From: Ostreococcus lucimarinus | Lineage: Eukaryota | Length of the DNA stretch: 64,000 nt | Reading direction: 5' to 3' (one strand) | Assembly (NCBI GenBank): GCA_000092065.1 | Contig: CP000596.1 | Part shown: positions 1,949 to 24,656 of the stretch, piece after piece | Layout of the letters: each line of letters starts with the position of its first letter | Position numbering within the stretch: position 1 is the stretch's first letter | Made by a program: the position numbers and the translations under genes | The notes under the pieces: model-generated | Seen by the model: the letters and a program-made list of their open reading frames with translations, nothing else | What the model was told of the DNA's origin: nothing | The model's database searches: none

Positions 1949-4040
1949 TTACGAATTCATGCTATCCGCGAGGGCGTCGAAGGCGTTGCGAGCGACGACG
2001 GGGGCGGGTTCGGCGAGCTTGGGCGCGGGCGCGGCGCGCTCGCGAGGCGCGGGCGCCGATTTCTCGGCGGCGGCGGGCTTGTCCTTGGGCGCGGGTGTGT
2101 CCTTGGACTTGCCGTCCTTGCCGTCCTTGGGCTCTGGTCTGCCTTTGGCGAAGCGAAATTTGTCGTCGAGCTCGAGGGAGAGCTTGGTGAGCTCGAGTTC
2201 GAGGTCTTTGACGTCGTCGCCGGCGTCCTTGGCGGCTTGAATCTTCTCCTTGAGTTCCTTCTCCTCTTTGAACTCCTTGCGCTTGACCGCGCCGACGGAG
2301 CGCTTGAGATCTTCGGCTTGCCAATCGCGACCGGCTTCCTTGAGCGCCTCTTCGCGCGGGCGAGCGCCGCCGAAGAGCGAGCTCTTCGCCGCGGCGCCGA
2401 CGGGGGCGTCGGTGGAACGCTTTTGCAAGTTCAGTTTGGGCCTCGCGGCGCGCTCCTCGGGAGTCGCTTCGCGGAGTTCTTCCTCTTTGCGCGGGGCGAA
2501 CGAAGACTTGCGGCCCCATCTGTCGCCATCGGAATCTTTCGGTTCGTCGTATTGCTTGCGCTCGGTACGTTCGGGGTTTTCTTCCGAGCGAATCGGAATC
2601 GCTTCGCGCGGCTTGTCCTCGACGTACTTGACGTCTACGGGCTTAGCGCCACCGAAGAGCGAGCTTGAGCCCGCGCTCGCGCTCGTAGGAGCGGCTTCCG
2701 AGCGTGGTTTGAGCTGAAGCTTCGGGCGATCGCCTCGCGGAGCGTAACCATCATCCGACGGCGGCTCGGCGGCGGCGGTGCGAGAACGCAAAGAGCCCCA
2801 GTCGCGGTCGCGTTCTTCGCGCGGAGGTCGATCGTCGTATCGCGAATCACGCTCCGGTAACTGTTTTCTGTCTCTACTCCAGCTGTCGCTTTCATCCGCG
2901 CGCGACGGTCCGAGATCCTCACGCGGCGGCCGGTCTGCGAAATCGCCAAATCCCGGTCTGCGCTCCTCGCGGTCGCCGTAGCGATCGTCGCCGCCGCCGT
3001 AACGGTCGCCACCTCTCTCGGCGTAACGGTCGCCAAATCCTGTTGCACGCCTGTCGCCGCCGTAACGATCATCTTGCGGCGGCGCGCGACGGTCCGCGCC
3101 CCAGTTAGAGCTCGTATCCGCGCGAGAAGGACCTTGCTCTTCGCGAACCTCTCTGTCGCCATATTCACCGTCGCGGCGGTCGTCTCGATCGTACCGACCC
3201 GGACGACGCTCATCACTGCGATCACCGCCGCCGTAACGATCACCACCGCCGTAACGATCACCACCGCCGTAACGATCACCGCCTTGGTTGAATCCACCAC
3301 CGAGACCGACGCCTCCGTCGTCGTCCGGTCGCGAGCTCGGCCCACTCGGCAGCACGACGTCGTCGCCGCGTCCTCGACCGAACGCCGATCCACCGACTCG
3401 TCCCGGAGGCGCGTACGACGACCCACCCGACGCACCCGCGAATTCTGCGAGCGAAAGTTTCACCCCTTTCGTCTTCTTCTTCGGTTCCTTCACCTTGGCC
3501 GCCGCCCCGAGCGACGGAAACGCTCCGCTCGCGTCCGCTTCCGCCGCCTCCCCGCCGAGCGACGGGAACGCCTGCGCCGGCACCGCTAACGATTCCACTC
3601 CATCGTTTCCTTCCTTCGTCTGCGTGAATCGCGAAAGCGCGCGTCGTTCCGTCAGTGCGCGCTCGTTTTCGTCGAGTTTAGCTTTTAAAAATCGAGCCCA
3701 CGTCCGAGCCGCGATCTCCGCGCGAACCGTCTCGACCGCGCCGCGCCCTCGATCGCGCGCCTCGTCGCCCCGGCGTCTCGCGAACGATGCGCGCGCAATT
3801 TCTCCATCATCTCGCGCGCGAATCGCGCGCGCGCGCGCGTCGCGCGCGTCGCGGGCGACGCGCACGCGTCGCCCCACGGCGCCGCCATCGGTCGGGCGTC
3901 GTTCGATGCATTTCGCGCCGCCGACGCGCGCGCGACGCGTCGCGCGCGTCCGCGACGCGCGACGCGCGTCGTGAGGATTTTTCAATCGCGCGCTACGATC
4001 GTACCTGTGCGCTCCACGCGCTGGTCGTGCCCCAAGCCAT
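1949..4040 (-). CDS. EIF4B: Plant-type translation initiation factor eIF4B, two exons: complement(join(1949..3619,4005..4040)).
   Basis: The large exon has twin FPSL motifs followed by KKKTKGVKLSLAEF (Arabidopsis eIF4B has SFPSLKEA...KKKKMTLSEF). It also has DRYGGG repeats and a K/E-rich C-terminus. The mini exon MAWGTTSAWSAQ resembles plant eIF4B MSKPWGGIGAWA. GTACGA donor; the 385-nt intron has a CTGACGG branch 30 nt before CACGCAG|ACG. Confidence 0.75.
3620..4004 (-). other. Inferred spliceosomal intron of EIF4B (385 nt).
   Basis: GTACGA donor directly after a 12-codon first exon. CTGACGG branch point, then a CAG acceptor that restores the ORF frame at TKEGNDGVESL. Confidence 0.6.
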
Positions 4041-4200: not shown

Positions 4201-6306
4201 TTAGGCGGCGGCGAAACCGAGCGCTTGGGCGATGTCGCGCTCGCTGGCGCTCTCGGCGGCGGCGATGATGTCGGCGGCTTCGATCGAGTCGTCCTCGGCG
4301 GCGTCTTCGGAATAGATGAGAGAGACGGCGCTGGAGGATTTGGAGTGGCGGCGCGCGGGCGAAGGCGCGAAGGCGTCCGAAGCGTCGCTTTGATTGCGCT
4401 CCAACATTTGAGCATACGAGCCGCGAGTGGCGAAATTGACGGTATTCCAACTTGGGACTCGGCCGCGGGAACCCATGCGGCCGCGACCGCGGAGGTTTTT
4501 GCGGAGGGAGGCGACGCACTCGTCGAGGACGAGTTCGATCCCGCACGCGTGCTCGATGGCGGCGAGTTGCGGCCAGATTTCTTTCTCGCCCATCGTCGCG
4601 GTTTCGAACAAGAACTCGCGCGTGGGATTGCTGGCGATGTGTGAAAATTGCTTCCACGTGTACCACATCACCGCCGTGGCGTCGCCCTCCCACTGTTGAC
4701 CGAAGAGTTTGAAGACATCGAAGACGTCGACGCCCGGAATCAAATCCAACACTTGTCGACAGCGATGTTTCCACTCGCTCTCGATGAAGTACGCCCAGAG
4801 GGCCAGCGCGCTTCCGCGCGATGTAAACCACCTTTTCACTCGCAACAGAGGGACGATGTGCGGATTCGTCTGCGACACGATGAAGTAATTGCAGTTGAAG
4901 AGTTCGCGCAAGTTGTCCATGGGCAGATCCGCCTCGAGACTACCATCGCGCCAGCGTCGCGGTCCGAGTTTTCCTTCTGGGAGCCACGGCACGAAGGCGC
5001 CGCTGCGAGATTTTGCCAACAATGGCTGCGGCGGGAACAACGAGGGAAACGCGCACGACGCCGCGACGGCTGACCAAAGCACGACGTGCGGCGACGTGAG
5101 ATAGTTTAACAGTCTCGGTTTTTCCCCAGTCGTCGTTGCACACACACACACACTCAGTATTCTGCCTCCACTTCGATCGTATGCCTCTTGAAAAGTCAAG
5201 TCGCCGAGTAACGCGCGGAGACAGCGCTGGAAAAAGTCAATGTCGTGCAACGCCCCGGTGCGCAAGTAGTGCTTCATCGCGCTCATCGAATCGTTGCCGC
5301 TGAAGAACGTCAAGTCTGGGAGCAAATCCCAAAAGTGCTCTTCGCTGAAGAACTCATCGAGCTCTTCCTGCGTGCGACTGCCGATAATGGCGGCGATGAT
5401 GGAGCCGACAGACGATCCGGCGAGCACGCGCGGGAGCAAATGTTTCCGATTCAACGCGCGCGCGACGCCGACGTGAAACGTTCCGAGCGTCCCTCCTCCG
5501 CTCATCATCAGCGCCGTGCGCCCGAAACAATGTCTCGTCTCTTGCAAAAACACCAGCTTTTCCTGAATCGTCACCGTTTCGTCCTGAGCGATGCTAAACA
5601 GCTGACTTTTCAGCTCGGCCATGTACTGGCGCACCGCCCGAGGCACCGCCGGCGGCTCGGCGTTCGATTTCGAAAACCGCACCTTACAATCGCTCTGCAA
5701 CGATCCCAAATTCCTCAAAATATCAGCTCTGAGCAAGAACATCATCTCTTCCACGTTCCCACTCGCGCGCTGCGCCTGCAACTGCCTCAACTGTTCATCG
5801 ATTAACTCGACGTCGTACGACCTCGACCCGCTTCCCCAACCGTCGCTCCGCGTCGTCGCCCGACCTCCCGCCTCCGCTCGCGCTTCTTCTTCCGCATCCT
5901 CGCGTTCGAGTTCCAACGCCGCGTCTTCAAACGCATCGTACGACGTCGCATCTCGCATTCGCGCTAAGATTTCCTTTCGTTTGCGTCCGTGTCGCCGTCG
6001 CGCCGCCGTCGCCGCCGTCCCGTCGCCTCGCGCCGCGAGATACCCCGTCCTCGTCACCGCCACCGCCACCGCGACGCACGCGACGACGCGCGCGTACATT
6101 TCGTACTCTTGTCTCATCCATCTCCCGCGTCCGGCGCGGACGTACGCGCCGTACGGCGTCCGCGACGGCGTCGCGCGCGCGGCTGTCCCCGTCAGCATCA
6201 GCATCGGCGACGACGTTTTCACGCTTCGCACCGTCTGCGCCACCGCGCGCGCGACGTCGCGCGCCGCGGACGCCGCGTAGGACACCCCTTCGTCGAACGC
6301 GCCCAT
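4201..6306 (-). CDS. SDP1: Patatin-domain triacylglycerol lipase of the SDP1/Tgl4 family.
   Basis: Patatin GXSXG nucleophile elbow LAGSSVGSIIAAI, a DUF3336-like N-terminal region and SDP1-like overall architecture. Start set at MGAFDEG (6306); the ORF extends further upstream into the shared promoter. Confidence 0.8.
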   Translation of the reverse strand: MGAFDEGVSYAASAARDVARAVAQTVRSVKTSSPMLMLTGTAARATPSRTPYGAYVRAGRGRWMRQEYEMYARVVACVAVAVAVTRTGYLAARGDGTAATAARRRHGRKRKEILARMRDATSYDAFEDAALELEREDAEEEARAEAGGRATTRSDGWGSGSRSYDVELIDEQLRQLQAQRASGNVEEMMFLLRADILRNLGSLQSDCKVRFSKSNAEPPAVPRAVRQYMAELKSQLFSIAQDETVTIQEKLVFLQETRHCFGRTALMMSGGGTLGTFHVGVARALNRKHLLPRVLAGSSVGSIIAAIIGSRTQEELDEFFSEEHFWDLLPDLTFFSGNDSMSAMKHYLRTGALHDIDFFQRCLRALLGDLTFQEAYDRSGGRILSVCVCATTTGEKPRLLNYLTSPHVVLWSAVAASCAFPSLFPPQPLLAKSRSGAFVPWLPEGKLGPRRWRDGSLEADLPMDNLRELFNCNYFIVSQTNPHIVPLLRVKRWFTSRGSALALWAYFIESEWKHRCRQVLDLIPGVDVFDVFKLFGQQWEGDATAVMWYTWKQFSHIASNPTREFLFETATMGEKEIWPQLAAIEHACGIELVLDECVASLRKNLRGRGRMGSRGRVPSWNTVNFATRGSYAQMLERNQSDASDAFAPSPARRHSKSSSAVSLIYSEDAAEDDSIEAADIIAAAESASERDIAQALGFAAA

Positions 6307-6517
6307 CGCGCGCGCTCGATTCGCGTCGCGCGACGCGCACTGCGGCGTAATCGCGCCGACGCCGACCGAAAGTTCGTTACGCGTCGGCACCTCAGACGAC
6401 GACGCGACGTCGCGCGCCGTTCGCGCGCGCCCGAACGTCGCGCGGCGGTGAGAAGAGACTCGCGCGCGCGTCGCGAGCGCGCGCGCGACGTCGAACGCGC
6501 CGCACCGCGCTCGAACG

Positions 6518-8152
6518 ATGGGAGATTCGCGCGACGTGGCGAATCGGCGGCTGGGACAAATCAACGATCACGTCCGCGGCGACGCGAAACGCGCGAACGG
6601 AGGCGCGAGAGCGGGCGGTGGCGATGGGTCGGACGCGCGAGCGACGCCGTCGGGGGGCGCGGGGGCGCTGCACGTGCGAGACTCGCGGACGGGGAAGGAG
6701 TATGAAATCGCGGTGTCGAGCGACGGCGCGGTGGACGCGTCGGCGTTTAAACAAATCACCGCGGGCGGCGATGGACGAGGTTTGGTGATGTACGATCCCG
6801 GATACATGAATACGGCGCCGTGTAAGTCGAAGATATCGTACATCGACGGCGAACGGGGGATTTTGAGGTATCGCGGGTACGCCATCGAGAGCTTGGCGAA
6901 ATCGTCGACGTATCTGGAGACGGCGTTCGCGTTGGTGTACGGAGATATGCCGAATGCGAGTCAGTTGATGGAGTGGGAACGGACGATTGCGAGGCATAGT
7001 GCGTTGCCGGTGCAGGTGGTGCACGCGATCGAGGCGTTGCCGCACGACGCGCATCCGATGGCGGTGATGCTCGCGGGGTTGAACTCGTTGAGCGCGATGC
7101 ACCCGGAGCAGAATCCAGCCATCGCGGGTGGGGCGATTTACAACTCTCACACCGTGCAGGATAAACAAATCGTGCGCATCATCGGCAAAATGACCACGCT
7201 CGCCGCGCACGCATATCATCGAAACACCGGGCGCTCGCCGGCGGCGCCGAATACGCGCATGTCGTACGCGGAGAATTTCTTGTACATGCTCGACGCCGGT
7301 TTGGACGCGCGGCATCGACCGCATCCGAAGCTCGCGAAGGCGCTGGACGTGATGTTTTTACTACACGCGGAGCACGAGATGAACTGTAGCACGGCGGCGT
7401 GCAGACACTTGGCATCGAGCGGGGTGGACGTGTTTTGCGCCGTGGCGGGCGCGGTGGGCGCGCTTTACGGGCCTCTGCACGGCGGCGCCAACGAAGCAGT
7501 GCTCAAGATGCTCGAACGGATCGGAAGCGTCGATAACATCCCGAGCTTTTTGGCCGGGGTGAAGGAAAAGCGATACGTGATGTTTGGTTTCGGACACCGC
7601 GTTTACAAGAACTTTGATCCTCGCGCGAAGATTATTCGCGACATCGCGAACGACGTCTTCGAGCTCGTCGGACGCGACCCGTTGATCGACATCGCCATCG
7701 AGCTCGAGAAGGCGGCGCGGGCGGACGAATACTTCGTCAAGCGTAAGCTTTACCCGAATGTAGACTTCTACAGCGGGCTGGTGTATCGCGCCATGGGGTT
7801 TCCCCCCGAATTTTTCACCGTGCTCTTCGCCATCCCGCGCGCGACGGGTTATCTTGCGCACTGGCGCGAGAGCTTAACGGACGCCGACAAGAAAATCATG
7901 CGCCCGCAGCAAATTTACCAAGGCGAATGGTTGCGAGATTACGAACCGATCGCCGCGCGCTCGCGCTCGCTCACCGACGCCATGGAGGATATTCAACCAT
8001 CCAACGCGGCGCGGCGCCGCATGGCTGGAGACCCGCCATCCGGCACGGCGTGGGTCGGGAAAGGCGTGGAAATGTCCACGCCGGCGTGGCAGTCGGGCGC
8101 GTCAGTCGGCGACGCGACGAGCGGCGTGGAGAACTATCTCGGACGAAAATGA
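6518..8152 (+). CDS. CSY: Citrate synthase, peroxisomal/glyoxysomal type, with a PTS2-like N-terminal nonapeptide.
   Basis: Citrate synthase signatures ([41 protein letters not shown]). The N-terminus [10 protein letters not shown] fits R-L-x5-H-[LV], the PTS2 pattern used by plant peroxisomal CSY2/CSY3. Confidence 0.9.
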
Positions 8153-8200
8153 ATTTACTGTAAATACTACACACACACATTTCTCGCTTAAAAGTATCCG

Positions 8201-9256
8201 TCAACGGTGACCCCTATCGATGCACTCTCGAGTGCCGAAGATGTTCGTCCGCCACCTCAAGCACGGCGCCGTTCCTCCGTTGATGGCGACCGTCCTCGAC
8301 AGATACATTCGCTCGCGCGCCCGGCGCGGATCGCACAAACCGCTTTGCAGTTCGAACTCAGTGCAAAACTGATAGACTTCCTCGAGATCAGGCTGACAGT
8401 ACGGCCAAGACAGCGGCGCGTTCATTCTCGAAATTCTTTCGCGGTACCACGAACCTCGATTTTCGTAAGTGCATCGTCGGAGCACCTCCTCGACCGAACA
8501 CGGTCTCACGAGCGTCGCGCACCGCATGTAATCGTCCAGAGCGGTCGGATTCCCTGGAAAGATTGTGGAGAACCACGTGAGCTGCTGCATCAACCTACCA
8601 ATCTCTCCTTGCGGCTCGAACATCACGCGCGAACCGTCCGCGTCGTACACGACGTACGCCTCGTTCGTAAACGCGACGAAATCAACCGGCGGGTACGCCG
8701 CGTCACCGACCCACGTCATCTCCAGCGCTCGCGCGTTCGCGATCCTCTCGAGATCGCTCTGAATGTCGTACGCGATCTCATCGAGCGTCTCGCGCATCGC
8801 GCCCGCGTCGGACGCGCTCGCCGACTCGATCAGGCTCAGCTCGAGCTTCGCCACCTCGCGTTCGACGTACTCGTCGTAGGACATCGTTCGCGCGCCCGAG
8901 TCGACGCCATCGCTCGCGCGCGCGAACTCGTCGTACCATCCCTCTCGCGCGTACCGCGCCTCGCCGTCGCCGTCGCCGTCGCTGTCGTAGCCGTAATCGT
9001 AATCGTAATCGTCGTCGCCCTCGTTTTTGCGAACCGTCGGCGTCGTCGCCTCGGGCGGTTGTTCGAACACGCGCACCGTTCGCGACCGCGCGGCGACGGA
9101 ATCGAGCGCGGACGCCTCCGCGAGCTCGCGCCCCAGCTCGGCCGCGATCGCGAGCGCCGCGAGCGCGCGTCGCATCGGCGCGACGCCGAGTGCGGCGGAG
9201 GCGAAGCGGCGTTTCGCCTCGCCTCGCGTCGACGAACACACCAACAGACGAATCAT
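8201..9256 (-). CDS. Hypothetical secreted or signal-anchored Cys-containing protein; start may be Met-28 (9175).
   Basis: Signal-peptide-like MRRALAALAIAAELG. An acidic DYDYDYGYDSDGDGDG tract. The C-terminal region has several Cys and Trp. No family recognised. Confidence 0.4.
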   Translation of the reverse strand: MIRLLVCSSTRGEAKRRFASAALGVAPMRRALAALAIAAELGRELAEASALDSVAARSRTVRVFEQPPEATTPTVRKNEGDDDYDYDYGYDSDGDGDGEARYAREGWYDEFARASDGVDSGARTMSYDEYVEREVAKLELSLIESASASDAGAMRETLDEIAYDIQSDLERIANARALEMTWVGDAAYPPVDFVAFTNEAYVVYDADGSRVMFEPQGEIGRLMQQLTWFSTIFPGNPTALDDYMRCATLVRPCSVEEVLRRCTYENRGSWYRERISRMNAPLSWPYCQPDLEEVYQFCTEFELQSGLCDPRRARERMYLSRTVAINGGTAPCLRWRTNIFGTRECIDRGHR

Positions 9257-9458: not shown

Positions 9459-10106
9459 ATGACGACGACGATGCGCGCGCCCGCTCGACCGCGCGCCGCG
9501 CCGACGCCGCGTCGCGACGCCGCGCGCGCGCCGCGCCGCGCGTCGCGCGCGCGCGCGGGCGACGTGAACAAGCGCCAGGAAGACCTCGGCGGACTCGGCG
9601 GCGACATCGGCGCCCGCGATCCCACCGCGGGCGAGCTCGAGAGCAATTTCGGGACGTCCACGCTCGGACACGCGGACACCGATCACATCCTGCAGGTGCC
9701 GACGGCGATGGCGGAGATGATCATGCTGAAGAATAAAAAGTGCGCGCCGGGGGCGCAGGCGGAAAAGTTGGACTTTCAGGGGCAGGAGGTGCTGCGGAAG
9801 CAGGTGTGGGACTGGAAGATTCGCCCGGGACGAGGGAACTTCGAGTGCCTGCGTCGGGAGTTTCCGACGGCGGAGGGCGAGGCGGGGAGGCTGTGCGAAT
9901 TGATCGCGGGGACGGCGACGGCGGAGGGATGGGCGCCGGCGACGTGCGAGGCGACGAGCGGGAGCAAGGTGCTCGTGGAACTCGGGAGCGATGCGCTCAA
10001 GGGCGTGTGCACGAATGATTTCATTCTCGCGGCGAAGATCGATGCGAACGAGGAGGCGATGGGGATGTTGGTGAAGGAGGCACCCAAGGCGCGCAACTGG
10101 TTTTGA
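9459..10106 (+). CDS. Hypothetical protein with an Arg/Ala-rich N-terminal presequence that looks organellar.
   Basis: R/A/P-rich N-terminus followed by a globular region (LDFQGQEVLRKQVWDWKIRPGRGNFECL). No family confidently recognised. Confidence 0.4.
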   Translation: MTTTMRAPARPRAAPTPRRDAARAPRRASRARAGDVNKRQEDLGGLGGDIGARDPTAGELESNFGTSTLGHADTDHILQVPTAMAEMIMLKNKKCAPGAQAEKLDFQGQEVLRKQVWDWKIRPGRGNFECLRREFPTAEGEAGRLCELIAGTATAEGWAPATCEATSGSKVLVELGSDALKGVCTNDFILAAKIDANEEAMGMLVKEAPKARNWF

Positions 10107-10318
10107 GAACCCCTCGGCGAGGGGGGCGTTTTTTCGTAGCGCGCGTCGTAGCCTGCGTCGTCTCGCGTAGCGCGCGCGCGCGCGTTCGCGCGTTCGCGCG
10201 ATCCATCAATCAATCTAGCGTTACGAATCGTCTTCTAACACTCAGATTAATTACACTAATTACTACACAACTCGTACCACACGCGCATTCACGGCGACGC
10301 GCAACGCGGTTTCAAAAA

Positions 10319-12664
10319 TTACTCGTCGTCGTCGCCGTCGATTTGTGCCTCGCGAGCGATTTCGTCGTCCGATTCGAACAACGAACGGACCGCGGGAAGG
10401 AGTTTGGGGAGCGACGATAATCCGGCAAAATCGACGCTCATCAAATCGAACGCCACGGCCGTGCGCTCGGTGTAAGTCCCGTCAAAGATTGGGATTTTAG
10501 GGTATCGCTGCGAAAAATGCGTGAGAATGGTGCGATAGGCGCCGGCGTCGATGCCGGTTTGCACAGCCTCCTTGGTCGTCGAATGCCGCTTCTTCACGGC
10601 TTCTTCCTCCATACCGTTCTCGAACGTCGCTTCGTGGACGAGGAGCGTGGCGTCGCGCGCGGCCGCGACGAGACTCGGACACGGGCGAGTGTCACCAGAA
10701 TACACCATCGTCCATCCTCGCTTGCCGACGAGCTTGGCGCCGTACGCGTGCGCGCAGTGATGCACGGGTACGGCGACAATTTCGTCCAAATCTGATCCCA
10801 TGAGCGCGGTGCGCAGTCGCGCCACCTGTGGGCTCATCGTCTCGCTCGACCATTTATCCTGCGTCGTCTCGCTCAAGTCGATGAAATCACAGTGTAAGCG
10901 TTCGAGATCCTCGTAGTAGTCCAAGAAGCGGCGCAGCGCGCGAGGACCGACGACGGGAATGATTGGCGGCTCCACGCCGTCTCGACGAAAGATCTCGGCG
11001 CGAGCGGTGAGAATGCGCGGTAAACCGACGTGATGGTCGGCGTGAATGTGCGAGATCCACACCATTCTCATCTCTCGCAACTTTTCATCCACCGCGCTCG
11101 CGCCGAAGCGACGAATCATTTGCGCCAGCGATCCTTCGCCGGTGTCGAGCATGATGTTCCCTCGGTACCCTTCGCCGCCGAACTGCATGGAAAATCCCGA
11201 GACGTTGCGATACTTTGCCGGCACCGCAGATCCAGTGCCTAAGAATACGAGCTCGACGTCACCAGGTTTGAGCTTTCGCAAATATTCAGGCTCTGGAAGT
11301 TCCGCGCCCGGACGCGCCTCGGCGGACGGCGACGGCGGCGGGGTCGGTTTCATCGCCTCGTTCGCCAAGTCTATCGTCCTTTGCTCGATATCTCTACGAT
11401 GTACGAAGCCAGGCACGTATCTGGGCACCGCGCTCATGTCCGCTCCGGCGTTCTTCGTCGGAATCAGCGTAAACTTGAACATATTTTTCCCCGCCAAAGC
11501 GTTCGGGACGTCTGCGGGCACCCCGTCGCGCCGCTTGTCATCTTTTGAAGGCGACGGCGGGGGCGATCTCGGCACATTATTCTCTGGAAACACGGTCGCA
11601 CTGACTGCGTGCAGCCTGGCTTGAATTCTCGCCGACGACGCGAACACGGGAACGTCGTCCATGGCGTCGGAGTTGGCGAAGACGTGCGCCGCGTCTTTCG
11701 GCGCGCCGCCGAAGACGGATTTCACGAGCGCGGCGTACTCCTTCGTGGACACAATCGCCGCGCTGGCCAAGTGCACGACGACGCTCAAGTCTGATAGTTC
11801 GCCGAAGAGCTCGCCGCCGCGAGTCGTCGCCTCGCGCACGTGCGCCGTCGTGGGCGCGTCGAACACGACGACGCGCGGTCCCGGTTGCTCCGGTCCGACG
11901 CACATCTCCGGCGACACCACCGAACCGTCGTCCAGCGTGATCGACTCCCCCCGCACCAACCGCCCGCGCTGCGGCCCGTTCGGCACGCCTAATTCCACCG
12001 CCGCCCGCATGTCAAATTTTCCCGGTATCGCCGCCAACTTGACGTCGTAACTCGCCACCTCATCGCTCGCGTCCTCGTCCGCTCTCGCGCGCTTCGCCGC
12101 GCGTCCCACCGCCGAATCCGTCCCGTCGTCCCTCGTCTCCCCCCCGAGCACGACGGCCGATATCGCCACCTTGCCGTCGTCCGCGACGACGCTCCGCGCG
12201 CGCCTCGCCGCGCCTCGCGTCGTCAGTTCCACCGCGCGTCCGCTCCCGAACAGCGTCCGCACCGCCCGCGTCAGCGCGCGCAACCGCCCGTCCGGTCCGC
12301 ACACCTCGACGCGCCTTCGCTCGACGCCCGCGTCGAGCCCCCGCCGCGTCTCCGCCTCGTCGCTCATCGTGAGCAGCGTCCCGACCAACCCGCCCGCCGC
12401 GCGCGAGTCCGCGCGCGTCAGCAGCACCCGCTCGCATCGTTTCAGCGCCTTGACGCGTCGCTCGACGCACAATCGCTGAAATCCCTCGCCGACGTTGAAG
12501 ACGACGCGCGCGTCATCCGTGCACAGCAGCACCGACGCGCACGTCGCGTCGCGCGCGTCCGCGCCGGGGTGCAGCACCTGGACGTACGCGCCGCCGACGC
12601 GTCGCGCGCGCGACGGACCCGACATGCGCCGCGCGAGCGTCTCGACGACGCGCCGCGTCGACAT
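10319..12664 (-). CDS. TRZ: tRNase Z long form (RNase ZL / ELAC2-like tRNA 3' endonuclease).
   Basis: The C-terminal metallo-beta-lactamase domain has the HxHxDH motif (WISHIHADHHVGL) and a tRNase Z C-terminal region (HFSQRYPKIPIF). The N-terminal half is a degenerate pseudo-MBL domain, typical of ELAC2. Confidence 0.85.
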   Translation of the reverse strand: MSTRRVVETLARRMSGPSRARRVGGAYVQVLHPGADARDATCASVLLCTDDARVVFNVGEGFQRLCVERRVKALKRCERVLLTRADSRAAGGLVGTLLTMSDEAETRRGLDAGVERRRVEVCGPDGRLRALTRAVRTLFGSGRAVELTTRGAARRARSVVADDGKVAISAVVLGGETRDDGTDSAVGRAAKRARADEDASDEVASYDVKLAAIPGKFDMRAAVELGVPNGPQRGRLVRGESITLDDGSVVSPEMCVGPEQPGPRVVVFDAPTTAHVREATTRGGELFGELSDLSVVVHLASAAIVSTKEYAALVKSVFGGAPKDAAHVFANSDAMDDVPVFASSARIQARLHAVSATVFPENNVPRSPPPSPSKDDKRRDGVPADVPNALAGKNMFKFTLIPTKNAGADMSAVPRYVPGFVHRRDIEQRTIDLANEAMKPTPPPSPSAEARPGAELPEPEYLRKLKPGDVELVFLGTGSAVPAKYRNVSGFSMQFGGEGYRGNIMLDTGEGSLAQMIRRFGASAVDEKLREMRMVWISHIHADHHVGLPRILTARAEIFRRDGVEPPIIPVVGPRALRRFLDYYEDLERLHCDFIDLSETTQDKWSSETMSPQVARLRTALMGSDLDEIVAVPVHHCAHAYGAKLVGKRGWTMVYSGDTRPCPSLVAAARDATLLVHEATFENGMEEEAVKKRHSTTKEAVQTGIDAGAYRTILTHFSQRYPKIPIFDGTYTERTAVAFDLMSVDFAGLSSLPKLLPAVRSLFESDDEIAREAQIDGDDDE

Positions 12665-12706
12665 GTGACGAAGACGCGCGCGTCGCGACGCATCGCGACG
12701 CGCGCG

Positions 12707-13711
12707 ATGCGGCGCGCGCTCAGCGCGCGACGCACGAAGGCGCGCGCGGTGACGCCGCGCTGCGACGCGTCGCGCGTCGCGCGACTCGCGACGGGACGCG
12801 TCGTGTCGCGCGTCGGATTCGGCACCGCGGCGTGGGGCGACGAGACGCGCGGGTTCGGGACGCGCTACCGCGAGCGCGACCTCGCGGCGGCGCTATCGCG
12901 CGCGCTCGAGCGAGGCGTCACGTTCGTCGACACCGCGGAGACGTACGGGGCAAGCGCGCGGGCGTTCGAACAGGGCGCGGAGGAGATGGTGAGACGCGCG
13001 AGGACGACGGCGAGGCGAGACGACGCGCGAGACGACGCGTTCGTCGGAACGAAAGTGTTGACGGTGCCGTGGACGAACGTGAGCGCGGGAGGGGACGTGC
13101 GATCGACGACGAAGAGCTTGGTGGACGCGATCGAGGCGTCGGTGGGGAGGAACGGGGGGGAGGCGTACGATTTGGTGTCGATTCATTTTCCGTTTCCGAC
13201 GTGGACGCAGAGCGCGCTGTGCGACGCGCTCGCGGAGGCGACGGAGCGAGGGCTGTGTCGGGCGGTGGGGGTGAGTAATTACGACGTAAGGCAGATGACG
13301 GAGGCGCATGGGTTGTTGGCGAAGCGTGGGATCGCGTTGGCGACGAATCAGGTGAAATATTCCGTGCTCGATCGAGGCGCCGAAAAGAGCGGGGTGCTCG
13401 CCGCGGCGCGGGATTTAGACGTCGCCGTCGTGGCGTATTCGCCCTTGAGCGGTGGGGCGCTGCGGACGAGCGCGGACCCGGAGATTCGCACGTTGGACAA
13501 GTTGCTCGAGTTCATCGGCGCCGTCAACGGTGGTTGGACGTCGGCGCAGGTGGCGTTGAACTATCTCGTCCGCAAGGGCGCGATTCCGATTCCGAGTTGT
13601 ACGAGCGTCGCGCGCGCCGACGCCATCGCGGACGTCCTCGAATTCGAGCTCGGCGTCGAAGACATCGAGACTATCGATGAAAAAATGGATTACATCGAAC
13701 GCAAGTCGTGA
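12707..13711 (+). CDS. Aldo/keto reductase family oxidoreductase, probably organelle-targeted.
   Basis: AKR signatures (GFGTAAWGD, VTFVDTAETYG, VGVSNY, AYSPLSGG). Start taken at MRRALSARR (12707). The ORF extends upstream but would overlap the tRNase Z start. Confidence 0.8.
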   Translation: MRRALSARRTKARAVTPRCDASRVARLATGRVVSRVGFGTAAWGDETRGFGTRYRERDLAAALSRALERGVTFVDTAETYGASARAFEQGAEEMVRRARTTARRDDARDDAFVGTKVLTVPWTNVSAGGDVRSTTKSLVDAIEASVGRNGGEAYDLVSIHFPFPTWTQSALCDALAEATERGLCRAVGVSNYDVRQMTEAHGLLAKRGIALATNQVKYSVLDRGAEKSGVLAAARDLDVAVVAYSPLSGGALRTSADPEIRTLDKLLEFIGAVNGGWTSAQVALNYLVRKGAIPIPSCTSVARADAIADVLEFELGVEDIETIDEKMDYIERKS

Positions 13712-18416: not shown

Positions 18417-21400
18417 ATGCGCGCCGAAGCCGCGTCGCACGCGACAGCGCGAGAGCACATCGTGCGCGCGCGTCCACACCGCGCGCGTCGAGCGCCGGCG
18501 CGCACAGCTGCGCCATCGTCGTCGCGAATTCGTTCCGTGCGCGAGCCCAACTTGGATAGCGCAGACCGCGAAGAAATCGCCTCAAACGACGCGCTCAGGC
18601 GCGCTCGCGGCGAGACGAGCACGTCGAACGATGACGAGTCAACGATCGCGTCGTTTGTCGCGAGCGCAGGGGCTCGAGAGACGATAGATTTAGGCGCGCG
18701 CGCGTCGTTGGCTGCTGGATGGGACGCTCTGGCGAGACGAGTGCGAGACGCGCGGCGAGACGCCGATCGAATGCCGGCGTGCAAGTTTGACAGCGGGTGC
18801 TTGCGGTTCGTGATCGATGTGCCGCGAGACGCGCGGGCGCTGCGATGGGTGAGCGAGGTGAGCGGGAAGGTGAGGAGTGGAACGCCGGCGTTTTATTGGT
18901 CGCCACGAGCGAAGACGGCGAGCGGAAGCGCGGTGGGCAAGGGCGGATCAGCGTCGAAGGAGACGGCGATGGAAACGACGAGGAGTGATAAGTTGGATTT
19001 TGACGCCGCACGCGGGTCGCGCGCGGGTTTTGGGTCGTGCGCGACGTGGACGGACGCAGGGAACGAGGACGAGACGTCATTTCGGCGGCGCATCGCTTCG
19101 ATGCGGAGGTTTCTAAGCGAGCATAAAGACGCTCGTGCGGGGTCTCGAGTGTATGGCGCCGGAAGGTTCGATCCTGGTCGCGCGCCCGAGGAGGAGTGGG
19201 CGTCGTTCGGGACGCATTATTTCTTTTTGCCCACGCTCGAAGTCGTGGAGGGCGTCAAGAGCGCCACGTTGACGGTTTCCGTGGCGTGGGACGCGCGCGG
19301 TGAAGAAAACTGCGGTCCATCGGCCAAGTCACTCGTCCAAGCGCTTGATGATGCGTGCGAGACGCTCAAGCGCTCAATGGGTGTCGAAAAGAGTTCAAAC
19401 AAGGCGTTACCCCCGGGCGCGGCGCACGTCGTCGACCGTGCGCTGGTGCCCGATCAAGACGGATGGTCCAAAGACGTGTCCTCCGTCATCAGCCGCATTA
19501 GAGTATCGCGAGCATCCGTGAGCGCTAGCGTGCGGGACAAAGAGGATGCCTGGATCGACTTAGGGAGCAGCTTTGACGAATCAGATTCGCCAGATGTGCG
19601 AACGGCGTTAGAATCGCTTGGTCGCGCGGCTGGAGTCGAAGCCCCGAGCGCGGTTCTCGATCAATTCGAAGCGATGACGATGGCCATGGATGGCGGACTG
19701 TACAAAGATGACTCAACAATGGAGGGCATGGTCGACGCTTTGCTTCTCGGCGGTGAAACCGTCGATCCGTTACGAAAAGTCGTCTTGGCGCGGAGAAGCA
19801 AGCTCAACCTGAACACGCCTGTGGATACTTTTGCCTTGGTCTCGAGGCTGCAATCTCGAGATCCAGATGCGTATCAATTCGTTTTAAGACACCCCAACGG
19901 TGAGACCTTCCTAGGTTCGACGCCTGAGCGCTTGTTCTTATGTCAAGGGGGTCGCGCGGTGAGTGAAGCCGTGGCTGGCACGCGCGCCAGAGGCGCCGAC
20001 GACGGTGAAGACGCGGCTTTGGCGTATGACATGCTTCTGTCGCCCAAGGAGCACGAAGAGTTTGCAATCGTGCGTGAAGAAGTTCGTCGTGCACTGGGCG
20101 ATGTCGCCGACGGTGGAAATGATGGCGTGGAAGTTGAGCTTGAAAAAGGTATCTTGCGCAACGTTACCGTGCAACATTTATACTCGCGTCTCTCTGCGCC
20201 CTTGGCCAGCGGCAAGACAGAGGCTGATTTACTCGATGCGCTGCATCCCACGCCCGCGGTGTGTGGATACCCGCGCAAAGCTGCGCTAGACACGCTTCGT
20301 GCGGTGGAGTCGTTCGATCGCGGACTTTACTCGGGACCGCTCGGGTGGATAAGCGCGGATGGCGCTGAATTCGCCGTCGCCATTCGTTCAGCGCTGGTGC
20401 ACCCCGACGGTGATGAGGTGTCTTTGTACGCGGGCGTCGGTGTCGTCGGTTCCGCCAACGCGCAATCCGAATGGCACGAATTGAACTTGAAGACAAAACC
20501 CCTCGAGTCACTTCTTGCGCCGGTGACACCGCTCGCGAGCTTGCCAAATCCCAACGCAGCGTGGGCAACGATATTGATCGGTGAGCTCGTACGCGGCGGC
20601 GTGACGACATTCTGTATCGCTCCTGGAAGTCGTTCGACGCCTCTCGCACTTGCGGCTGAGAAACACGTCGAAGCAAACGTGGTCGTGTGTATTGACGAAC
20701 GTTCTCTTGGGTTTTATGCATTGGGATACGCAAAAGGCGCGGCCCAGCCCGCTGCGGTGATTTGCAGCAGCGGCACGGCTGTGGCTAATTTACTGCCATC
20801 CGTCGTCGAAGCGTCAGAAAGCTCAACCCCGTTATTATTACTCACCGCAGATCGACCGTATGAGTTGCGCCACACTGGTGCGAATCAAACGATTGACCAG
20901 GTGAAAATTTTTGGTTCGTACGCTCGATTCAACGCCGACTTGGCTCCACCCGGAGACGGCGCGCCTGCGCGCGCCTGCGCCACCATGGCTGCGACGGCGC
21001 TTCGATATTTGAGAGGAACGAACCCTGGACCGGTGCACCTAAACTGTGCTTTTCGCGAACCGCTCGGTCCGCAACGTGTGGACTGGGACTCAGCGGCTGC
21101 GCTTAAGGGGTTGGAGAAATGGGAAGAGTCGTCGACGCAGTTCACCATTGGCAATGCCACCGCAGGAACGATGCACGACGGCGGCGCCTGGCAAGCAGCG
21201 CTATCTCAAATCGCAAACGCTAAGCGCGGATTGCTAGTAGTTGGAAGTGGCTCGTCTGCAGCGGACTCAATCGCGGCGACTGCGATCGCTAAAACGCTGG
21301 GCTGGGCTGTCGCCGCCGACGCCACGAGCGGTATTCGCGTGGGCGCGGGTGAGGATGAATCCGTGCGTAAGATTCCTATGATCGATTACGTATTGGTGGA

Positions 21401-24400
21401 ACCGAGTGCGCATGATGCGTTGAGACCGGATGTTATCCTGCAAATTGGTGCCCGTTTGACGTCCAAGAGGCTATGCCAGTTCCTTGAAGCGAGCGCGATT
21501 GAGAATAATGCTGAGTGGATCGTCGTTGAGCCGACTCCGAACCGAGTGGATCCGGCGCATTGTGTGAGTGTTCGAGTTGAATCGTCCATCGGATACGCTT
21601 TGGAAGTTTTGGAGAGCGCGCTAAGTCACGAGAGCGGTTACGACACGAGTGACTCAAAAACATCATGCATCGCCTTTGCCGAGCGCGCCGTCGCTGTCGG
21701 CGCCGCAGTCGCACGCGAAGCCGCGATGGCCCTCAACGACATCACCGCCAACGAAGGTATGTCCGAGATGGCTGTCGCGATCGCCATCAGCGAGGGTCTA
21801 CCTGATTCTATGGGTTTCTTCTTGGGTAACTCCATGCCCATCCGCGATGTCGACGCATTCAGTGGAATCAAAGAATTCTCCGAAGGTTTAAATTTTGATC
21901 GTGAAGACTGCGCGACGTCGGCGTACGGAATTCCCGTCACGGCGAATCGAGGCGCGAGTGGTATTGACGGTGTGATATCTTCAGCCGCGGGATATGCTGC
22001 AGGCCTTGGACATCCGGTTACACTCATCATCGGCGATGTGTCGTTTCAGCATGATTCCAATGGACTACTGTTCCTTCGCGAGCGTCCCGGTCAACCACCG
22101 GTGACGGTCGTCGTCGTCAATAATGGCGGCGGTGGAATTTTCAATTTTTTACCCGTCGCCTCGCAGGTTGACGATAAGTCGTTCAATCGTTTGTTTGCCA
22201 CACCGCCGGATGTGTCCAGAAGAGGACTGTGCGAGGCTCATCGCGTCGCCTATGCGCATCCAACGTCGGTTAGTGAGTTCGGTGAGGCGCTCAGCGCTGC
22301 GTGGAACGAAAATCGTCACAGCGTCATCGAAGTGACCACGTCCCGCGCTCGAAATTTGATTCAGCACAAGTTAGTGCAGCGGCGATGTGCACGAGCCGCA
22401 CGACAAGCCCTTGAGCTAACGACTACGTCGACGTCAAAGACGATTCAGAGTATTGAAGTGGCTTCGTTCTCACTTCCTCTGAAGAAACCCACTACAGCGA
22501 ATGCGTCATCGACGACACGGGACGGATGGCTTCTGAAGGTCACCCTGAGCGATGGTGTCGTCGGTTACGGTGAGTGTTCTCCTCTGGATGGACTTCATCG
22601 CGAATCGTACGAAGAGAGCGGCGCGCAACTTTCCGTCGTCGCTTCGCTCATGAACAGCATGGAAGTTCCTACGAATGTTGCTCTGCTCAACGGCGCCTTT
22701 GCAGCCTGGATTGAAGATTGCGTCGGCGTGCGCTCGACGAGCGAGTTGTTTCCCACTGTTCGATTTGCGTTGGAGTCAGCAATTGCGAACGCGCTCGCCG
22801 CAAGCGAAGGCAAGACGCTTTCTCGCGTCATGACTGGCGACGAGGTGATGAACTCCGTCTCTGTGAATGGACTCGTTGACGCGACGACTGATGTCGCCGC
22901 TGCGCGCCGCGAAGCGCGCGCGCTCGTGGACGCCGGTTATACCTGTTTAAAAGTCAAAGTGGCTCGGGGTCTTGGTAGTGATGGCGCTCGAGCAGACGCG
23001 GAACGACTCGCTCAGATTCGAGACGAAGTCGGTCCCAGCGTCGCGCTCCGTGCTGATGCGAACAGGCGTTGGGATTTGACGGAAGCGCTCGATTTCGGCG
23101 CGCGAGCGCAAGAACTCAACGTGGGTTTGCAGTACGTCGAAGAACCCACTCGTGCGGCACATGAAGTCGCGGCGTTCCATTTCACCACCGGCATAGCCGT
23201 GGCTTTGGACGAGACCATCGACGACATTCTTTGCGAGTCTTCAAGCTTGGCCGAGGCAAGCGCAGCGATTTCACGCGTTGCGGATCAGTCCACAGGTATC
23301 GTAGCTGTGGTGCTCAAACCATCCGTCATTGGAGGTTTAGAAGCGACGTCTTTAATTGCGCGCATCGCAATGTCTCGAGGTGTCCGGCCCGTGATTTCTA
23401 GCGCGTTCGAAAGTGGCATTGGATTAAACGTCAGCGCTCACCTCGCGGCGACGCTCGACGATGTTTTGGCTCGTGAGATTCAAGCAGCCAGAGACTCTTT
23501 GGTGACGGGCGACGACACCGAGCGTCCGAACACGCTGGATATAAAACCTTTGATTTTGGCTTTAGACGCGCAACCAACATCGCACGGCCTAGGAACGGCG
23601 TCCTGGTTTGACGGCGACGTGATGTTCCCCGAAGTCGTCCCCGTCCGGAAAGGAAGCGACGGGATGTCCATACACTTACTCGAAGATACCGACAAGACTA
23701 AACGTCAGACATCAGTGGTATCCATGTTCCAGGATGTTTCGAAGCGTTGGGGTGAAGATTCCACAATCACGGTTGAAACATCGAATGGAATTTACGAGGT
23801 ACAGTGCGTCGAGCGCACTCCAAGCGGAGGCAACTCGAGCGGCGAAACGATCGTACTATTGCATGGATTCATGGGATCGAGCGAAGATTGGGATATCGTT
23901 GCCCGCGGTCTGACCGTTCGTAATAACGCTCGAGTGATCGCAATCGATTTGCCCGCTCACGGACGAACGACGTGTACGCCGCATCGAGGGAAATCCATGC
24001 GCGATTGCCTGCGCGTGGAAGCCATGCGAGATGTAGTCGCCGCAGCGATGACCAAGCTCGGATGTCCCAACGAATGTACGCACGTTGTCGCTTATAGCAT
24101 GGGTGCACGCATTGCACTTACTCTCGACGAATCAAGTCTGAAGTCTATCGTCTCCATCGGCGGTTCTCCGGGATTGTGCGGGGAAGACGCGCGAGTCGCG
24201 CGGGTCGCTCAGGACGACGACTTAGCCGCCGCTTTACTCAAGGGTGATGATGCGCGTGAGTTCGCCAAAGTTTGGTATCGACGAGGTTTGTTCTCTACTC
24301 TCGTCGCTCATCCACGATTCGGTGGCGTCAATGGGCTCGCCGAACGTCGCGGATCAGTCATTGGGACGAACGCAGAGGCGCTCGCTGCGTGCCTCGCCGC

Positions 24401-24656
24401 CGCCTCACCCGGACGTCAAATCGAGGGTTGGTCGACGCTTTGTCGTCTTCGCGGTAAGCTCACGATGATCGTGGGCGACAAGGATGAAAAGTTCAAATCG
24501 ATATCGCGCAAGATGCAAGACGCCATGAGTGAAGGGGTGGTAGACGCGGCGCCGTGCAAAGTATTTATCGTTCCTCGATGCGGACACGCGGCGCATTTGG
24601 AAGCGCCTGAGTCCGTCGTCGCGCGCGTTCTCGAGGCAATCGACGCGCAGCAGTAG
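18417..24656 (+). CDS. PHYLLO: PHYLLO tetramodular phylloquinone-biosynthesis protein: MenF (isochorismate synthase), MenD (SEPHCHC synthase), MenC (o-succinylbenzoate synthase) and MenH (alpha/beta hydrolase) in one 2079-aa ORF.
   Basis: The N-terminal chorismate-binding domain appears complete (PERLF, GTRARG, HPTPAVCGYP, GLYSGPLGW, AGVGVVGSANAQSEW). A TPP-dependent MenD core follows (WATILIGELVRGGVTTFCIAPGSRSTPL, GDVSFQHD). Then an enolase-superfamily MenC (KVKVARG, LDETI), and an alpha/beta hydrolase module with VLLHGFMGS. The module order matches the plant/algal PHYLLO locus. Confidence 0.9.
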   Translation: MRAEAASHATAREHIVRARPHRARRAPARTAAPSSSRIRSVREPNLDSADREEIASNDALRRARGETSTSNDDESTIASFVASAGARETIDLGARASLAAGWDALARRVRDARRDADRMPACKFDSGCLRFVIDVPRDARALRWVSEVSGKVRSGTPAFYWSPRAKTASGSAVGKGGSASKETAMETTRSDKLDFDAARGSRAGFGSCATWTDAGNEDETSFRRRIASMRRFLSEHKDARAGSRVYGAGRFDPGRAPEEEWASFGTHYFFLPTLEVVEGVKSATLTVSVAWDARGEENCGPSAKSLVQALDDACETLKRSMGVEKSSNKALPPGAAHVVDRALVPDQDGWSKDVSSVISRIRVSRASVSASVRDKEDAWIDLGSSFDESDSPDVRTALESLGRAAGVEAPSAVLDQFEAMTMAMDGGLYKDDSTMEGMVDALLLGGETVDPLRKVVLARRSKLNLNTPVDTFALVSRLQSRDPDAYQFVLRHPNGETFLGSTPERLFLCQGGRAVSEAVAGTRARGADDGEDAALAYDMLLSPKEHEEFAIVREEVRRALGDVADGGNDGVEVELEKGILRNVTVQHLYSRLSAPLASGKTEADLLDALHPTPAVCGYPRKAALDTLRAVESFDRGLYSGPLGWISADGAEFAVAIRSALVHPDGDEVSLYAGVGVVGSANAQSEWHELNLKTKPLESLLAPVTPLASLPNPNAAWATILIGELVRGGVTTFCIAPGSRSTPLALAAEKHVEANVVVCIDERSLGFYALGYAKGAAQPAAVICSSGTAVANLLPSVVEASESSTPLLLLTADRPYELRHTGANQTIDQVKIFGSYARFNADLAPPGDGAPARACATMAATALRYLRGTNPGPVHLNCAFREPLGPQRVDWDSAAALKGLEKWEESSTQFTIGNATAGTMHDGGAWQAALSQIANAKRGLLVVGSGSSAADSIAATAIAKTLGWAVAADATSGIRVGAGEDESVRKIPMIDYVLVEPSAHDALRPDVILQIGARLTSKRLCQFLEASAIENNAEWIVVEPTPNRVDPAHCVSVRVESSIGYALEVLESALSHESGYDTSDSKTSCIAFAERAVAVGAAVAREAAMALNDITANEGMSEMAVAIAISEGLPDSMGFFLGNSMPIRDVDAFSGIKEFSEGLNFDREDCATSAYGIPVTANRGASGIDGVISSAAGYAAGLGHPVTLIIGDVSFQHDSNGLLFLRERPGQPPVTVVVVNNGGGGIFNFLPVASQVDDKSFNRLFATPPDVSRRGLCEAHRVAYAHPTSVSEFGEALSAAWNENRHSVIEVTTSRARNLIQHKLVQRRCARAARQALELTTTSTSKTIQSIEVASFSLPLKKPTTANASSTTRDGWLLKVTLSDGVVGYGECSPLDGLHRESYEESGAQLSVVASLMNSMEVPTNVALLNGAFAAWIEDCVGVRSTSELFPTVRFALESAIANALAASEGKTLSRVMTGDEVMNSVSVNGLVDATTDVAAARREARALVDAGYTCLKVKVARGLGSDGARADAERLAQIRDEVGPSVALRADANRRWDLTEALDFGARAQELNVGLQYVEEPTRAAHEVAAFHFTTGIAVALDETIDDILCESSSLAEASAAISRVADQSTGIVAVVLKPSVIGGLEATSLIARIAMSRGVRPVISSAFESGIGLNVSAHLAATLDDVLAREIQAARDSLVTGDDTERPNTLDIKPLILALDAQPTSHGLGTASWFDGDVMFPEVVPVRKGSDGMSIHLLEDTDKTKRQTSVVSMFQDVSKRWGEDSTITVETSNGIYEVQCVERTPSGGNSSGETIVLLHGFMGSSEDWDIVARGLTVRNNARVIAIDLPAHGRTTCTPHRGKSMRDCLRVEAMRDVVAAAMTKLGCPNECTHVVAYSMGARIALTLDESSLKSIVSIGGSPGLCGEDARVARVAQDDDLAAALLKGDDAREFAKVWYRRGLFSTLVAHPRFGGVNGLAERRGSVIGTNAEALAACLAAASPGRQIEGWSTLCRLRGKLTMIVGDKDEKFKSISRKMQDAMSEGVVDAAPCKVFIVPRCGHAAHLEAPESVVARVLEAIDAQQ

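Follow-up and report, generated by a model that had tools for sequence, protein, structure and literature searches.

Two genes that diverge from a short spacer in the 64 000-nucleotide stretch of DNA analysed here (the window) encode relatives of enzymes that belong to one pathway in Arabidopsis, where SDP1 begins the hydrolysis of triacylglycerol (TAG), i.e. the breakdown of the stored lipid, and CSY2/3 are needed to export the carbon of β-oxidation. The arrangement raises the questions of whether a lipase and a citrate synthase (CS) are switched on together from a shared promoter in this alga and whether the CS is directed to peroxisomes at all. The account that we favour, with a probability of roughly 0.7, is an ordinary one: divergent genes for an SDP1 lipase and a peroxisomal-type CS, lying in a conserved block, with a near-canonical PTS2 on the CS and a spacing that comes from genome compaction.

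The lipase and citrate synthase genes

The gene for the SDP1/TGL-family patatin-domain TAG lipase occupies 4201..6306 on the minus strand; it is a single exon without introns and encodes 701 residues from its first ATG (6306), the coordinates including the stop codon. Pfam places a DUF3336 domain, which is characteristic of the N-terminal part of SDP1/Tgl3-5 lipases, at residues 108–259 (5530..5985, minus strand; PF11815, E 1.3e-15), followed by a Patatin domain at residues 266–463 (4918..5511, minus strand; PF01734, E 1.5e-25), which is the domain order of SDP1/Tgl3-5 TAG lipases. Within the Patatin domain, SGGGTLG (5482-5502) corresponds to the oxyanion hole, GSSVG (5404-5418) is the nucleophile elbow and RDGSLE (4933-4950) contains the catalytic Asp; all three, on the minus strand, align with the same motifs of Camelina SDP1, so that both the Ser-Asp dyad and the oxyanion hole are present. 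Protein alignment gave 40% identity to Camelina SDP1 over 659 residues, and identities to plant SDP1 proteins lie at 41-46%; a metagenome protein (P0238) is 100% identical to the lipase.

The DUF3336 and Patatin architecture is that of Arabidopsis SDP1 and yeast Tgl3/4/5, with the GGG oxyanion hole, the GSSVG nucleophile and the DGS Asp all kept, but the putative TAG lipase found here is shorter (701 versus about 825 residues), has a short C-terminal tail and begins with a GC-rich segment of ∼100 residues that is poorly conserved, as is also seen on comparing Ostreococcus lineages with one another. Should translation instead begin at the following ATG in frame (a Met near residue 35), the gap to the CS gene would be roughly 310 bp. 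By its sequence the lipase is an orthologue of plant SDP1; among the algae, Chlamydomonas LIP4 and Phaeodactylum Tgl1 are orthologues of the SDP1/Tgl lipases.

The CS gene, at 6518..8152 on the plus strand, is likewise a single exon (544 residues, stop included in the coordinates), and the same frame contains a stop 23 codons before its ATG. The Citrate_synt catalytic domain covers residues 95–464 (6800..7909, plus strand; Pfam, E 4e-129) and contains the His/His/Asp catalytic motifs in full: HAEHE (7364-7378), GFGHRVYK (7586-7609) and NVDFYSG (7757-7777), all on the plus strand. The best match of solved structure is the peroxisomal Arabidopsis CSY3 (673 bits, E 2e-201), whereas the mitochondrial CSY4 scores only 97 bits (E 1e-26). 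The top named matches are peroxisomal or glyoxysomal enzymes, and the nearest named relatives are from O. tauri, O. mediterraneus and Bathycoccus prasinos. The protein is 59-66% identical to Arabidopsis CSY2/CSY3, pumpkin glyoxysomal CS and Chlamydomonas CIS2, and it is, judged from these comparisons, an orthologue of the plant and algal peroxisomal enzymes (CSY2/3, CIS2). It differs from them in an additional 40-residue C-terminal extension that is specific to the Mamiellales (residues 505–544, 8030..8149, plus strand), which has a conserved GDATSGVE motif and lacks a PTS1 tripeptide. Targeting by a PTS1 on this extension was considered and rejected, as none of the Mamiellales C-termini compared ends in an [SA]-[KR]-[LMI]-like tripeptide. 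The first-pass annotation had described the locus as an SDP1-type lipase and a peroxisomal-type CS with divergent starts at 6306 and 6518; both open reading frames were verified at these positions, and the alignments bear out both assignments.

The N-terminal nonapeptide and the destination of the citrate synthase

Residues 11–19 of the CS (6548..6574, plus strand) read RLGQINDHV and align with the RLAVLSAHL-type PTS2 of plant and chlorophyte orthologues, including those of CSY2/CSY3, pumpkin glyoxysomal CS and CIS2, at the homologous N-terminal position; theirs end in Leu, whereas the sequence here ends in Val (RLx5HV). The canonical motif is [RK]-[LVI]-x5-[HQ]-[LAF] (PMC7710942). Compared with this motif within the first 40 residues, and with a hydrophobic residue asked for at position 5, the nonapeptide agrees at positions 1, 2, 5 and 8 and departs from it at position 9, so that it is not a canonical PTS2. 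The stricter consensus patterns of Petriv (2004) and Reumann are not matched by it either. A looser motif, R-[LIV]-x5-[HQ]-[LIVAF], occurred in the first 40 residues of only one of ∼81 non-CS open reading frames at Mamiellales loci, and the match is thus unlikely to be due to chance.

A comparison of 17 Mamiellales lineages shows which positions are held. Position 1 is Arg in all 17, position 2 is Val or Leu, position 5 is Leu, Val, Ile or Phe, position 8 is His or Gln in 14 of the 17 and position 9 is Val or Leu; positions 3, 4, 6 and 7 and both flanks are free to vary. Conservation confined to positions 1, 2, 5, 8 and 9 suggests a working signal. The Bathycoccus orthologues have Thr or Ser at position 8, so at least one genus may have a relaxed signal or none. 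The proposal that RLGQINDHV fits the PTS2 nonapeptide is thus upheld as to its homologous position and the constraint on these five residues, but with Val at position 9 lying outside the canonical motif the fit is a loose one.

A second CS bears on where this one might go. Scanning metagenome DNA for the mitochondrial-type motif DHEGGNVSAH and then searching at the protein level brought up a different CS, of the mitochondrial type, in O. tauri and in Micromonas-like contigs, that is, in relatives and not in the window's own genome. The O. tauri-annotated protein (P0386) is encoded on a different, 835-kb contig, and two Micromonas-like open reading frames (L042 and L030) bear presequences. The mitochondrial-type enzyme has no acidic residue in its first 40 positions and a presequence-like N-terminus, versus six acidic residues in the CS of the window. 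A TCA-cycle CS, Od05g01850, is named in a transcriptome paper on RCC809 (PMC10662239). The idea that the window enzyme is the sole CS of the alga, and hence mitochondrial, was rejected in view of the separate mitochondrial-type enzyme on the O. tauri and Micromonas-like contigs.

It could still be that the nonapeptide is a relic, with the CS cytosolic or targeted elsewhere and its link to lipid mobilization nominal only. Such a reading would account for the Asn at position 6 and the Val at position 9, both outside the published consensus patterns (PMC7710942), for the loss of His/Gln at position 8 in Bathycoccus, for the Cys-containing processing motif of plant PTS2 proteins being absent from the N-terminus of the CS in this lineage, and for a lineage-specific C-terminal extension. 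We regard it as quite improbable, however. Five positions are fixed or conservatively replaced while the remainder drifts, which is the pattern that the helix face of a functional PTS2 predicts. An N-terminus with six acidic residues does not resemble a transit peptide for mitochondria or plastids, and the separate CS has a typical presequence. The form RLx5HV is itself listed as a likely, although unvalidated, PTS2 variant and has been proposed to be functional in stramenopiles (PMC7710942). The receptor may also be at hand: PEX7 is given as absent from three other species of a set that includes O. tauri, implying that O. tauri retains it (PMC8172628).

The spacer and the conservation of gene order

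The two ATGs are separated by a 211 bp spacer (6307..6517, unstranded) with a GC content of 75% and 30 CpG per 100 nt, in which the promoters and 5′ UTRs of both genes presumably lie. Divergent ATG-to-ATG gaps in the window measure 42, 135, 195, 202, 207, 211, 358, 667, 848 and 954 bp; 211 bp is close to their median and is thus ordinary. In its short common upstream region and opposite orientations the pair resembles other divergent pairs of compact genomes such as those of yeast and the Mamiellales, with about ten in the window itself, and differs from them in that its products share one pathway and that it is kept across three genera.

As had been suggested for checking, the pairing was sought in related genomes over ∼18 kb around each orthologue, and it was found in all eight of the Mamiellales lineages examined (five Ostreococcus, Bathycoccus and two Micromonas-like), always head-to-head. 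The lipase and CS genes are not linked in Chloropicon or Coccomyxa. The pair belongs to a larger block, in which at least seven genes are collinear (Snf7, eIF4B, SDP1, CS, an unknown gene, Pterin-4a and tRNase Z), so that it is not the pair in particular that has been conserved; collinear gene order is common among the genomes of the Mamiellales (PMC3491373, PMC6731263). Selection on a functionally linked pair would equally lead to its retention in every Mamiellales lineage sampled.

The first-pass annotation had gone further and proposed, from adjacency and nothing else, a bidirectional promoter and co-regulation. Spelled out, this would be a selected lipid-mobilization module in which the spacer activates TAG lipolysis jointly with the synthesis of citrate in peroxisomes, with triggers such as darkness or nutrient resupply, and in which the coupling preserves the adjacency. 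The shared Arabidopsis pathway of SDP1 and CSY2/3 and the divergent pair in three genera, without an exception in orientation, are what such a module would lead one to expect. It would also be expected to leave a mark on the spacer, but the eight orthologous spacers range from 211 to 660 bp and cannot be aligned, and a search of them for shared 7-9-mers returned only CGCGCG-type and other CG-rich low-complexity words. Nor does the order of the two genes stand out against that of their functionally unrelated neighbours eIF4B, Pterin-4a, tRNase Z and Snf7, which is kept just as well, and the linkage does not extend to Chloropicon or Coccomyxa. [quoted passage not shown] We found no report in the literature of co-expression or localization for either gene, and neither is named in the supplementary data of the O. 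tauri diel microarray paper or of the PEX survey. With a gap that is the norm for the window, a spacer conserved in neither length nor sequence and neighbours that are equally conserved, the proposal is not supported as it was put: the case for co-regulation of SDP1 and CS is weak, co-regulation itself is possible, and a selected module of this kind is unlikely. The other genes of the window were screened for a peroxisomal or lipid-catabolic role and none has a clear annotation of this kind; a partial gene of the mitochondrial-carrier family and a CRAL/TRIO-domain gene are also present.

A probable plant-like route in the Mamiellales

The reading that we prefer is that the locus holds two ordinary nuclear genes, each a single exon, that are transcribed divergently in a green picoalga of the Ostreococcus type (Mamiellales). 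The CS would most probably be imported into peroxisomes through PEX7, by means of an N-terminal PTS2 that is close to canonical and has the form typical of the lineage, R-[VL]-x2-[LIV]-x2-[HQ]-V, and would there condense the acetyl-CoA of β-oxidation with oxaloacetate, a step that we infer. The head-to-head arrangement is probably at least as old as the common ancestor of Ostreococcus, Bathycoccus and Micromonas and would have been carried along as part of the collinear block, with the 211 bp spacing arising from genome compaction and not from a specialized bidirectional promoter. Taken together, the two are known enzymes in an ordinary pairing, and a functional link between them is plausible.

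A more ambitious picture, which we consider doubtful, combines a Mamiellales-wide, selected SDP1-CS unit co-expressed from one compact control region with a lineage PTS2 variant R-V-x5-H-V and a Bathycoccus form R-V-x5-[TS]-[VL]. If true, the co-regulation would be a rare example, for a free-living eukaryotic alga, of metabolic genes conserved as a pair and would offer a compact dual promoter for engineering picoalgal lipid turnover, and the Bathycoccus form would point to a broadened PEX7 specificity or to relocation of the enzyme. A conserved R-[VL]-x5-[HQ]-V signal would widen the accepted PTS2 motif and improve the prediction of peroxisomal proteomes in prasinophytes. At present, the locus mainly confirms, as far as sequence comparison can, that a plant-like pathway leading from TAG lipolysis to citrate in the peroxisome has been kept in the Mamiellales, a predicted part of which is a dedicated peroxisomal-type CS alongside the mitochondrial one.

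Divergent lipase and citrate synthase genes

The window has a GC content of ~63%, is dense in genes and contains essentially no introns. The lipase ORF (701 amino acids) is on the minus strand; its first ATG is at 6306 and its stop at 4201, and a Pfam search places a DUF3336 domain (residues 108–259) N-terminal of a Patatin domain (residues 266–463). The citrate synthase ORF lies on the plus strand (6518–8152; 544 amino acids; Citrate_synt match, E = 4e-129). The ATGs of these divergent ORFs are 211 bp apart, and the first-pass annotation located and described the pair correctly. The start of the citrate synthase is fixed by an in-frame stop 23 codons upstream. The sole uncertain point in the gene models is the start of the lipase, whose N-terminal ~100 residues are hardly conserved among Ostreococcus lineages; if it began at the next in-frame ATG the gap would be ~310 bp. 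Two short (CA)n microsatellites are present, one within the lipase coding sequence (5138–5155, encoding a VCVC stretch) and one directly past the citrate synthase stop codon (8168–8180). Elsewhere in the window, a 2079-residue ORF (18417–24656, plus strand) joins chorismate-binding (MenF-like), TPP-enzyme (MenD), enolase-superfamily (MenC) and α/β-hydrolase (MenH) modules; it is a PHYLLO-type phylloquinone-biosynthesis fusion that includes the MenF-like module.

Over ~75–80% of its length the lipase has 41–46% identity to plant proteins with an SDP1 annotation, and it has 40% identity to Camelina SDP1 in a pairwise alignment of 659 amino acids. The glycine-rich oxyanion hole (SGGGTLG), the nucleophile elbow (GSSVG) and the catalytic aspartate (RDGSLE) are all in register with the Camelina protein. 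The name SDP1-type triacylglycerol lipase, already proposed from the sequence, is justified at the sequence level.

A peroxisomal-type citrate synthase

The citrate synthase is identical to one metagenome protein and has 83–85% identity to four other Ostreococcus-level clusters (members of two carry the annotations O. tauri and O. mediterraneus), 66–76% to Micromonas-like and Mantoniella proteins and 68% to Bathycoccus prasinos; the window therefore derives from an Ostreococcus-type alga within the Mamiellales. Among solved structures the enzyme matches Arabidopsis 'Citrate synthase 3, peroxisomal' best (E = 2e-201), scoring 673 bits, compared with just 97 bits for 'Citrate synthase 4, mitochondrial', which supports the earlier description of it as of the peroxisomal type. 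We scanned metagenome contigs for a mitochondrial-type enzyme using the motif DHEGGNVSAH in GC-rich codons and obtained GC-rich intronless ORFs with ~60% identity to what we take to be the sequence of Arabidopsis CSY4. One of these, used as query in a protein search, matched an entry labelled 'Citrate synthase active site, partial [Ostreococcus tauri]'. Its 835-kb contig is distinct from the 411-kb chromosome-17 contig with the O. tauri orthologue of the window enzyme, so that the peroxisomal-type enzyme is not the only citrate synthase in this lineage. A transcriptome paper on RCC809 names a chromosome-5 gene as the citrate synthase of the TCA cycle (PMC10662239). The mitochondrial-type protein begins with a typical presequence with no acidic residues in its first 40 amino acids, against six in the window enzyme. 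The window enzyme is therefore a peroxisomal-type paralogue, and the lineage has a mitochondrial citrate synthase as well.

Peroxisomal-type citrate synthases of Mamiellales carry a C-terminal extension of 40–80 residues (8030–8149, plus strand, residues 505–544 here; also in the relatives P0002, P0011, P0012, P0015 and P0022), which other green-lineage CSY2/3-type enzymes lack. It terminates in a conserved P-A-[WF]-x-[SG]-G-x-x-[VA]-G-[DE]-x-x-S-G-[VIM]-[ED], and none of the Mamiellales extensions ends in a PTS1 tripeptide.

The nonapeptide RLGQINDHV (6548–6574, residues 11–19) lines up with PTS2 signals such as RLAVLSAHL, RLAALQRHL and RLAVLSRQL in the orthologues from land plants and chlorophytes. 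The canonical signal is [RK]-[LVI]-x5-[HQ]-[LAF], with a hydrophobic position 5 and within the first 40 residues; RLx5HV is listed as a likely but unvalidated variant (PMC7710942). RLGQINDHV agrees with the canonical signal at positions 1, 2, 5 and 8 but has Val at position 9; the PTS2 assignment in the first-pass annotation is right in essence, though the signal is non-canonical. The strongest evidence for it comes from 17 non-redundant Mamiellales citrate synthase N-termini: all 17 begin the nonapeptide with Arg and have Val or Leu at position 2; Leu, Val, Ile or Phe stands at position 5, His or Gln at position 8 in 14 of the 17, and Val or Leu at position 9. Variation is free at positions 3, 4, 6 and 7 and on either flank. 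This is the pattern that would be expected of a functional PTS2. A loose form of the motif occurs in one of ~81 other ORFs at the loci bearing the citrate synthase. Starts of the enzyme differ between gene callers in metagenome contigs, with GTG or upstream-ATG extensions of 12–29 residues (P0006 and P0165; compare position 6001 in the O. tauri locus L014 with 6001–6037 in L015); in every alternative model the nonapeptide stays within the first 40–46 residues. The PTS2 receptor PEX7 is probably present, since a comparative survey that took in O. tauri reports it as missing in three other species only (PMC8172628).

Against a PTS2 stand the unvalidated terminal Val, the absence of the plant-type Cys processing motif from the N-termini of this lineage, and Thr or Ser at position 8 in the three Bathycoccus lineages (RVAHFSRTV, RVEHLSRSV and RVANLSRTL; proteins P0022, from B. 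prasinos loci L005–L007, P0017 and P0021), a genus that may have relaxed the signal or lost it. On balance, we consider peroxisomal targeting of the window enzyme probable (roughly 0.8).

Gene order and the spacer

The divergent pair is found in all five Ostreococcus lineages (O. tauri reference included), in each of three B. prasinos genomes and in two Micromonas-like lineages, with gaps of 211, 265, 359, ~285, 498, 374, 636 and 660 bp. It is absent from Chloropicon primus, in which a vacuolar-sorting-receptor-like gene and an acetyltransferase flank SDP1, and from Coccomyxa viridis, in which the two genes are on separate contigs. This distribution makes the head-to-head arrangement a trait of the Mamiellales, and an old one. 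Using tblastn, Snf7, eIF4B, SDP1, citrate synthase, a 351-residue gene, Pterin-4a dehydratase and tRNase Z were found to be collinear, with identical orientations, across Ostreococcus, Bathycoccus and Micromonas, and published comparisons report that colinearity is common among chromosomes of Mamiellales (PMC3491373, PMC6731263). Conservation does not appear to be specific to the pair, which is retained no better than its functionally unrelated neighbours. The 351-residue gene (8201–9256, minus strand; no Pfam match) lies tail-to-tail with the citrate synthase, only 48 bp from its stop, and adjoins it at every Ostreococcus, Bathycoccus and Micromonas-like locus. In Bathycoccus locus L005 a 1153-residue copper amine oxidase call (9782–13537), perhaps an insertion or a fused gene model, lies between citrate synthase and Pterin-4a dehydratase and overlaps the orthologue of the 351-residue gene.

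The first-pass annotation had suggested co-regulation from a shared bidirectional promoter. The spacer (6307–6517) has a GC content of 75% and, at 30 CpG per 100 nt, is twice as rich in CpG as the citrate synthase coding sequence. Its length is close to the median of the ten divergent gaps in the window counted from crude gene calls (42, 135, 195, 202, 207, 211, 358, 667, 848 and 954 bp). Between orthologous spacers the length differs threefold and no alignment is possible, and no k-mers are common to most of them except CGCGCG-type low-complexity words; long runs of this type occur in the spacer and similar ones in the intergenic region 3800–3980. PMC2850359 cites phylogenetic footprinting that suggested bidirectional regulatory elements to be rarer in Ostreococcus than in yeast. 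We found no expression data in the literature that name either gene. The one argument leading from adjacency to co-regulation is that the two products are functionally related, and we regard co-regulation as unlikely.

The enzyme assignments are sound at the level of sequence. Both proteins are new members of known families, in a genomic arrangement that is conserved but unexceptional. The terminal-Val form of PTS2 typical of Mamiellales, the deviation at position 8 in Bathycoccus and the conserved C-terminal extension of the citrate synthase are of at least as much interest as the pairing itself.
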